Assembly: GCA_000004985.1 (NCBI GenBank)
Contig: GG738848.1
Source of the DNA: Naegleria gruberi
Lineage: Eukaryota
Direction: 5' to 3' (one strand)
Length of the DNA: 64,000 nucleotides
Notes under the pieces: model-generated
Databases searched by the model: none
Seen by the model: the letters and a program-made list of their open reading frames with translations, nothing else
What the model was told of the DNA's origin: nothing
Translations under genes and position numbers: made by a program
Shown: positions 743 to 1,785 of the stretch, one piece after another
Numbering within the stretch: the first letter of the stretch is position 1
Layout: every line of letters starts with the position of its first letter

Positions 743-1785
743 TTATTTGAAATTATTTTCAAAATCAGCAGCAACCAAATCAGCCAAAGTTCTGGCAGAG
801 GTTGAGCCCAACTTGGCACGAGTTTGAAGCTTCAATTCAATTGGATAGTGATCACTAACTTCAGCAGCTTGAGCTCCAGTGAGAGAAAGAGCAGTATCGA
901 ATCTATAAACACTAACAGAGTTGATTTCAAATGCAGCACCATCGGCAATCTTCTTATCAGCCATACCCTTTGAAACAATAAATCTATCGTATGGACAAGA
1001 AGAAGAAGCAACAGTGGTATCCATATCATCAGTAATCAACCAAGTATACTTTCCATTTCTAAATTTGAGAGCAGCAAGTTGTTTACCAGAAACATATCCA
1101 CATCCAGCATTAAAGTCTCCCATCATGATTGTGTTTTCATAGAACTTTTCATTCTTGAGTTGTTCATAAACTTCTTGCATGTGATTGAGTTCGTTAACAG
1201 CATCAGATGGTTTGATGTGACAGCCCATAATTGCAAATTGGACATTCTTCAACTTGGCATCTGATGTGACCAATTGATAAACAAAAGTGAAAGGAGCACG
1301 TTCAAACCAATTGTTACGTCCTTATATTGCACAGTCTTGCCCATCTTGATAAGATTACTATTGAAAATGACACCATATTGTTCCTTTTGAGTTGGTTCCT
1401 ATCTTTCGCTCAAAACATAACTATAACGTTTATCACCTTCACCCAACAATCTAGCCAAAATGTGGAATGCTTGATCAGAGGAATCTCTCACTTCTTGAAC
1501 GAGAATCAAGTCGTATTGAGATAGAATTTTGGTGAGAGCAGAGGCAACATTTTGCTTTTGCATCTTTTTAGTTCCCAATACTTGAATATTGAAAGAACAA
1601 ATACGAATGCCATTGGAAGTTTTACTCTCCAACACTGCAGTATCTTGTAAGGAACTAACTGAAGTCAATGAATAACCATGATAGTGTCTTTGATAGAGAG
1701 CTTCAGTTGATCCGAACATGAATGAGATCATCAAGGAAGCAATTAAACATGCAACAACTACCAATAAAATGTTTCTTCTCATCAT
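743..1785 (-). CDS. Secreted DNase I-like nuclease, interrupted by an 80-nt non-canonical insertion
   Basis: Two minus-strand ORFs in different frames. The 5' block 1402..1785 starts at the first ATG, 1785 (MMRRNILLVVVACLIASLMISF, a signal peptide), then IRICSFNIQVLG...YDLILVQEV...YSYVLSER. The 3' block 743..1321 reads GRNNWFERAPFTFVYQ...MGDFNAGCGYV...SDHYPIELKL. Together they align colinearly with DNase I ([20 protein letters not shown]...SDHYPVEV). Removing exactly 1322..1401 joins R|G in frame, but that 80 nt begins with an in-frame TAG and has no GT..AG boundaries. Confidence 0.6.

Follow-up and report, generated by a model that had tools for sequence, protein, structure and literature searches.

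A DNase I-family gene of Naegleria gruberi whose reading frame is broken within probable core coding sequence

Near one end of a 64,000-nt stretch of Naegleria gruberi DNA (the window), the two halves of a DNase I-like protein lie in different reading frames. The original prediction was that an 80-nt segment at 1322-1401 separates the halves and can be excised, either as an odd intron or as an insertion, with a pseudogene or an assembly indel as fallbacks. The question raised by the locus is therefore whether the 80 nt is foreign to the gene or part of it, and, if part of it, what has broken the frame.

The gene, its family and its surroundings

The locus is that of NAEGRDRAFT_62569 (XP_002682045.1, EFC49301.1, UniProt D2V1G3). 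From its sequence it appears to be a single-exon gene for a secreted nuclease of the DNase I family, disrupted in this assembly. The gene and its open parts are as follows.

743-1785, minus strand: DNase I-like (Exo_endo_phos) gene, from ATG at 1785-1783 to TAA at 745-743, recognized by its frames, PF03372 and matches to solved structures
1402-1785, minus strand: upstream open part, codons 1-128 (MMRRN...YSYVLSER), with a signal-like N-terminus and the first third of the DNase I core
743-1315, minus strand: downstream open part (NNWFERAPF...SDHYPIELKL...FENNFK, stop), with the catalytic His and Asp residues all intact

The upstream frame reads MMRRN...GEGDKRYSYVLSER and is closed by a TAG at 1401-1399. 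The downstream part, which also carries GDFNAGC, is in the other frame, where GRNNWFERAPF follows directly after a TAA. In these respects the original description was accurate: the gene is DNase I-like, its N-terminus is hydrophobic and signal-like, the SDHYPIE motif is present, and the two halves occupy different frames.

Membership of the DNase I family was assessed with a frame-repaired, stop-masked protein as the query against solved structures. Colinear alignments were obtained to DNase gamma 7kiu and to DNase I 9fju, 1atn and 1dnk, with E values of about 3e-45 (2.6e-45 to 5.8e-45). They spanned query residues 59-322 and chain residues 2-281, and included the segment at residues 129-157. 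The PF03372 profile was matched at 45.4 bits (cut-off 24.5) over profile positions 1-225 of 225. The repaired protein retained 36-37 of the 38 columns that are conserved in at least 85% of 72 relatives. Judged by alignment, the catalytic and metal-binding residues are conserved; these are the equivalents of Glu39, Glu78, His134, Asp168, Asn170, Asp212 and His252, whose roles we take from the DNase I literature.

Compared with bovine and human DNase I and DNase1L3 (1ATN, 1DNK, 9FJU, 7KIU), the N. gruberi match was full-length and colinear over the whole catalytic core. The conserved Glu, His and Asp residues and the SDHYP motif are held in common, and the signal-like N-terminus would be consistent with secretion, as in those enzymes. 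Unlike them, the N. gruberi ORF is broken by a TAG and a 1-nt frameshift, and it has one residue fewer in the LGR loop. The Naegleria proteins also extend beyond the core by a C-terminal tail of about 25-30 residues, which is absent from animal DNase I. This extension (…KLGS..TLADLVAADFE…; window 743-830, minus strand) follows the SDHYPIE core and corresponds to residues about 268-292 of the closest homologue, P0002, in whose structural model it is predicted to be helical. An intact ORF is thus the sole membership feature that the gene lacks, with a TAG at codon 129 and a change of frame at 1313-1317; sequence, conserved residues and predicted fold all fit the family.

A homology search with the repaired protein returned as its top match a 311-aa 'predicted protein [Naegleria gruberi]' (P0001), the deposited product of this locus. 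Four further proteins belong to the same subfamily, at 47-61% identity: P0002 (locus L001) and P0006 (L004) from metagenomes, N. lovaniensis C9374_008011 (P0003, L002) and N. fowleri P0004 (L003). Each is encoded by one continuous start-to-stop ORF, and all share the N. gruberi-like C-terminal tail and the single-exon organization; no intron interrupts any of them. Their ORFs are intact, whereas the N. gruberi copy is 4 nt short, and its neighbouring genes are not shared. The closest intact homologue, P0002, is a single ORF with about 60% identity at 3636-4514 of contig MLSBCLC_10100321 (JGI metagenome 3300002220). This 8-kb contig apparently comes from a Naegleria-like eukaryote; it also encodes a protein kinase, and its neighbouring genes are not syntenic with the window.

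When the window was compared with the relatives' contigs for synteny, only the DNase gene itself matched. In N. lovaniensis and N. fowleri its neighbours are N6-adenine-methylase-like, GST, DUF547 and tubulin genes, while in N. gruberi a small membrane-protein ORF lies on one side and a ubiquilin gene on the other (window 1-4400). From these differing flanks, either the locus has moved or the genes are paralogous. No DNase paralogue was found within the 64-kb window.

The window is AT-rich (GC about 0.34). The ubiquilin gene (2787-4388, plus strand) encodes a ubiquitin-like domain, UBQLN1/STI1 repeats and a C-terminal UBA, together with long low-complexity tracts rich in Thr, Asn and Gln; no record of the exact 533-aa product was found in the gene-position collection. 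On the minus strand, 18427-33108 is an uninterrupted ORF of 4,894 codons (14.7 kb) for a giant RNF213/ZNFX1-like protein, in which an RZ-type zinc finger (PF20173) lies around residue 4150; the gene may have another exon downstream. Six tRNAs were called, all on the plus strand (36394-37288, 40713-40793, 53914-53984 and 55868-55941; Gln-TTG, Asp-GTC, Ser-AGA, Gly-GCC and Glu-TTC). The call at 36394-36486 is 93 nt long, was given no anticodon by the caller, and is possibly an intron-containing tRNA.

Coding content of the 80-nt segment

Deletion of exactly 1401-1322 does join the two frames on translation, SER to GRNNWF, and the segment does open with an in-frame TAG, its 5′ end being TA rather than GT, GC or AT. 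What the segment encodes is set out below.

1322-1401, minus strand: the 80-nt segment, reading in the upstream frame as a stop followed by EPTQKEQYGVIFNSNLIKMGKTVQYK; conserved coding sequence for two core beta-strands
1381-1383, minus strand: GAA codon of a K-E-Q-Y motif, aligned to KERY/KEQY; the E is conserved in 99% of 72 relatives

In the upstream frame the 80 nt gives a stop and then EPTQKEQYGVIFNSNLIKMGKTVQYKD. This translation was colinear, with no gap, with residues about 71-98 of DNase I in the solved DNase I and DNase gamma structures, and with 11 relatives in a multiple alignment covering Naegleria, metazoan, Thecamonas and Myxococcus sequences. Every aligned relative has the stretch. 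The only sequences to lack it were the public N. gruberi model, by 36 columns, and the version made by removing the 80 nt, by 27. Compared by tblastx with the closest homologous locus, the segment matched at 67% over 24 aa. Its identity to P0002 (16/28, 57%) was similar to that of the sequence upstream (44/67, 66%) and downstream (94/161, 58%). Five of the 38 conserved columns, G, K, E, Q and Y, fall inside the segment, and K, E, Q and Y are kept. We take the Glu of K-E-Q-Y to be the equivalent of bovine DNase I catalytic Glu78, the partner of His134.

Codon usage was scored as log-odds trained on the long ORFs of the window, with 26-codon windows outside the long ORFs as background. The segment scored 0.27 bits per codon in frame, against 0.21 and 0.31 for its flanks, a value reached by only 1% of the background windows. 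Candidate real introns scored -0.25 to -1.6. The GC content of the segment was 0.35, against 0.15-0.32 in candidate introns. In the AlphaFold model of P0002 (pLDDT 93.9), the homologous residues form predicted strands 80-87 and 91-98 (pLDDT 94-98), which would make up a hairpin in the core sheet.

These data make it very likely that the 80 nt is ordinary protein-coding sequence for a beta-hairpin carrying the catalytic Glu, with nothing spliced out or inserted. The original claim of an excisable odd intron or insertion is at odds with homologous, in-frame DNase I coding sequence, catalytic Glu included, in every relative.

The lesions and their origin

From K-R-Y to T-F-V, 52 codons occupy 156 nt in all four homologues and 152 nt in N. 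gruberi. Alignment placed the differences at the following positions.

1313-1317, minus strand: the true frameshift, one A missing from a run at 1314-1315 (GTAAC against GTA AAC, V N, in the closest homologue)
1399-1401, minus strand: in-frame TAG at the family's Leu of S-E-R-L-G-R, by substitution (TTG/TTA to TAG) or by a missing T (TTA GGA to T-A GGA)
1384-1388, minus strand: A-run (TCAAAAG) with a possible extra base, bracketing a 14-nt stretch together with a missing base at 1401

The position and type of the frameshift were the same by each method. A MAFFT nucleotide alignment set a single-base gap, GT-AAC, opposite GTAAAC of the closest homologous locus. Frameshift-tolerant protein-to-DNA alignment put the missing base at 1313-1317 whichever of the four homologues and whichever penalty was used. 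Base 1315 is shared by the GTA of the upstream frame (1317-1315) and the AAC of the downstream frame (1315-1313), so an AAA run is short of one A. Across this point N. gruberi reads ...TVQYKD(V)NNWFERAPF, against ...TIQYNDVNNWFERPPY in the homologue, and repair of the missing A yields ...QYKDVNNWFERAPF... The fallback of a pseudogene or assembly indel had thus pointed in the right direction, given the in-frame TAG and the 1-nt deficit, although the deficit lies 7 nt outside the 80-nt segment.

Two readings of the TAG region were considered. The likelier is that a T may be missing at 1401 and an extra base present in the run at 1384-1388. The other frame of the intervening 14 nt reads G-T-N-S-K (KIGTNSKG) and would originally have given (L/I)-G-T-N-S-K, against L-G-R-S-N-S-K in the family. 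This reading needs fewer changes relative to the closest homologous locus, and it restores a Gly conserved in 99% of relatives, raising the retained positions from 36 to 37 of 38. It was preferred only with P0002 at frameshift penalties of 10 or less, and not at higher penalties or with distant homologues. The alternative is a TTG/TTA-to-TAG change with deletion of one codon and five non-conservative replacements, which leaves a stop followed by EPTQ in place of LGRSNS. The assembled frame is broken by very small lesions within about 88 nt, namely the missing A at 1314-1315 and damage at 1384-1401 that creates the TAG. Outside this patch a single conservative change (Leu to Met) was seen among the 38 conserved positions, with no sign of relaxed selection.

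What produced the lesions can be read in two ways. There is about an even chance that they are run-length miscalls in a poorly covered patch of a Sanger draft, in which case the real gene would be intact. It is possible, at somewhat lower probability, that they are real, and that strain NEG-M carries here a unitary pseudogene of very recent origin, or one null allele of a heterozygous diploid, with a premature TAG at codon 129 and no active nuclease. We infer that sequence error is slightly to be preferred, because the rest of the gene keeps its family-conserved residues, because the lesions cluster, because the changes are in homopolymer run length, as is typical of miscalls in read tails, and because N. 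gruberi is represented by a single assembly, a Sanger draft. Under uniform decay of the 1043-nt gene, clustering of three lesions within 88 nt has p = 0.02, and that of two has p = 0.16. The same constraint, clustering and run-length changes argue against real lesions. So does the finding of no second N. gruberi DNase I-like gene among the best 120 hits, as the species would then lack an enzyme that its relatives keep.

Real lesions are nevertheless consistent with several observations. Both the stop and the frameshift stand in the assembled sequence, and the same damage had to be bypassed in the public gene model. A copy that has moved and is decaying would account for the lack of synteny with the loci of N. 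lovaniensis and N. fowleri. Elsewhere the window is of high quality, as its unbroken 14.7-kb ORF attests. Sanger consensus at about 8x is normally accurate; with this and the unbroken 14.7-kb ORF in mind, any error must be strictly local. Naegleria has been described as a heterozygous diploid (PMC9928731), and Table 1 of the same 2023 pangenome paper lists a single N. gruberi genome, the NEG-M Sanger assembly.

Independent N. gruberi sequence of the locus was sought by exact look-ups of the ubiquilin ORF, P0001, the 128-aa truncated ORF and the C-terminal ORFs, none of which gave a match. No high-identity fragment of the locus appeared among the homology hits, and no papers were found under the locus identifiers.

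The deposited model and other readings

The public gene model takes a further course, in which a longer stretch is treated as an intron.

1321-1427, minus strand: 107-nt GT...AG 'intron' of the public model, with donor GTTATAGT and acceptor TATAAG; it removes 36 conserved codons (YSYVLSER...QYKD)

Excision of 1427-1321 followed by translation reproduced XP_002682045.1 residue for residue, so the window and the public N. gruberi assembly agree in sequence. The public model concerns the same locus and gives the same protein as this excision; it differs in treating 1321-1427 as an intron. The original prediction, which saw no canonical splice solution, had overlooked this one, and others exist. 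When all GT/GC...AG excisions of 20-400 nt that open the frame were enumerated, they included 1427-1321 (107 nt), 1421-1321 (101 nt), 1436-1321 and 1442-1321. Each deleted conserved core sequence, and none of those enumerated was a small intron removing only the TAG.

That the 107-nt intron is genuinely spliced, perhaps by 'intronization' of a damaged exon to give an in-frame product 36 residues shorter, is very unlikely. Its ends are canonical GT...AG, and its removal restores one long ORF identical to XP_002682045.1. Against it, the stretch removed is conserved, coding and exon-like in its codon usage, the four relatives have no intron at the site, and P0001 lacks alignment columns that all relatives have. 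At position +3 the donor (GTTATA) carries a T, a mark of a weak site among U2-type introns. In the P0002 model, predicted strand 65-69 would be taken as well as strands 80-87 and 91-98; with three core strands and the catalytic Glu lost, no active DNase would be produced. On this reading N. gruberi would splice these 107 nt through weak GT/AG sites and so skip the premature stop and the frameshift. A splice consensus for N. gruberi was sought within the window by ORF joining, by a GTA[AT]G-seeded search and by an EM-style PWM, which failed to converge; unambiguous introns were too few. We judge the 107-nt intron to be a gene-caller's work-around around the damage rather than a real intron. The deposited XP_002682045.1/D2V1G3 is very probably a mis-model without 36 core residues, including the catalytic Glu.

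Removal of the 80 nt alone to give an R|G junction, as a non-canonical intron or a small inserted element, can be given almost no weight. Naegleria belongs to Discoba, hence the idea of a euglenid-like intron. The excision opens the frame, and the resulting SERGRNNWF superficially resembles the LGRN of DNase I. The junction had been called a perfect match to LGR; the resemblance is coincidental, because GGA CGT is read out of frame from AAG GAC GTA, and it is at the TAG that the family has its real LGR. The 3′ end had been placed one base too far, at TATAAG: the segment ends ...ATATAA, and the G is base 1321, needed as the first base of the GGA codon. With TA at its start and AA at its end, the segment has neither the termini of a U2-type intron (GT-AG or GC-AG) nor AT-AC ends with an ATATCC donor. 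The one trait that it shares with U12 AT-AC and euglenid introns is boundaries without GT-AG; unlike them, it has no AT-AC ends and no pairing of its ends, it has coding composition, and it corresponds to homologous coding DNA. Its homology equals that of its flanks and its codon usage is exon-like, so non-coding content is not indicated. RNA folding around the segment gave an MFE of -10 kcal/mol, weaker than shuffles (z = +1.29), with no end-pairing. An insertion is contradicted by the homologous sequence in all relatives, and further copies, sought within the 64-kb window, were not found. Removal would also delete the K-E-Q-Y catalytic motif. Either excision, of 80 or of 107 nt, would cost the protein its catalytic Glu and two or three core strands.

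Programmed recoding, in which read-through or reassignment of the TAG and ribosomal frameshifting would give a full-length enzyme, has a negligible probability. All that speaks for it is that the gene is intact apart from a stop and a frameshift. Within the window all three stop codons function as stops: 17 ORFs measured from stop to stop reach 900 nt or more, one of them is 14.7 kb long, and one ends in TAG. No X XXY YYZ slippery heptamer was seen by inspection at 1313-1321, no stable downstream structure was present, and the relatives encode the region conventionally. Insertional RNA editing was rejected by inference, since the changes needed (+T, -A/G, +A) are not of one kind and the gene is nuclear.

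As assembled, the gene can only give a 128-residue inactive fragment without the equivalents of Glu78, His134, Asp212 and His252. For curation, the outcome at this locus would be either a repaired single-exon gene of some 348 codons or a pseudogene flag. The case also indicates that an excision that restores a frame is no evidence of an intron unless the excised piece has been checked for homology. If intronization of the 107 nt were true, it would be intron birth from coding sequence caught in the act in an intron-poor protist. The biological import is small, since neither a new type of intron nor a new element is present: the locus shows a broken ORF of an ordinary kind, and its public protein is mis-modelled.
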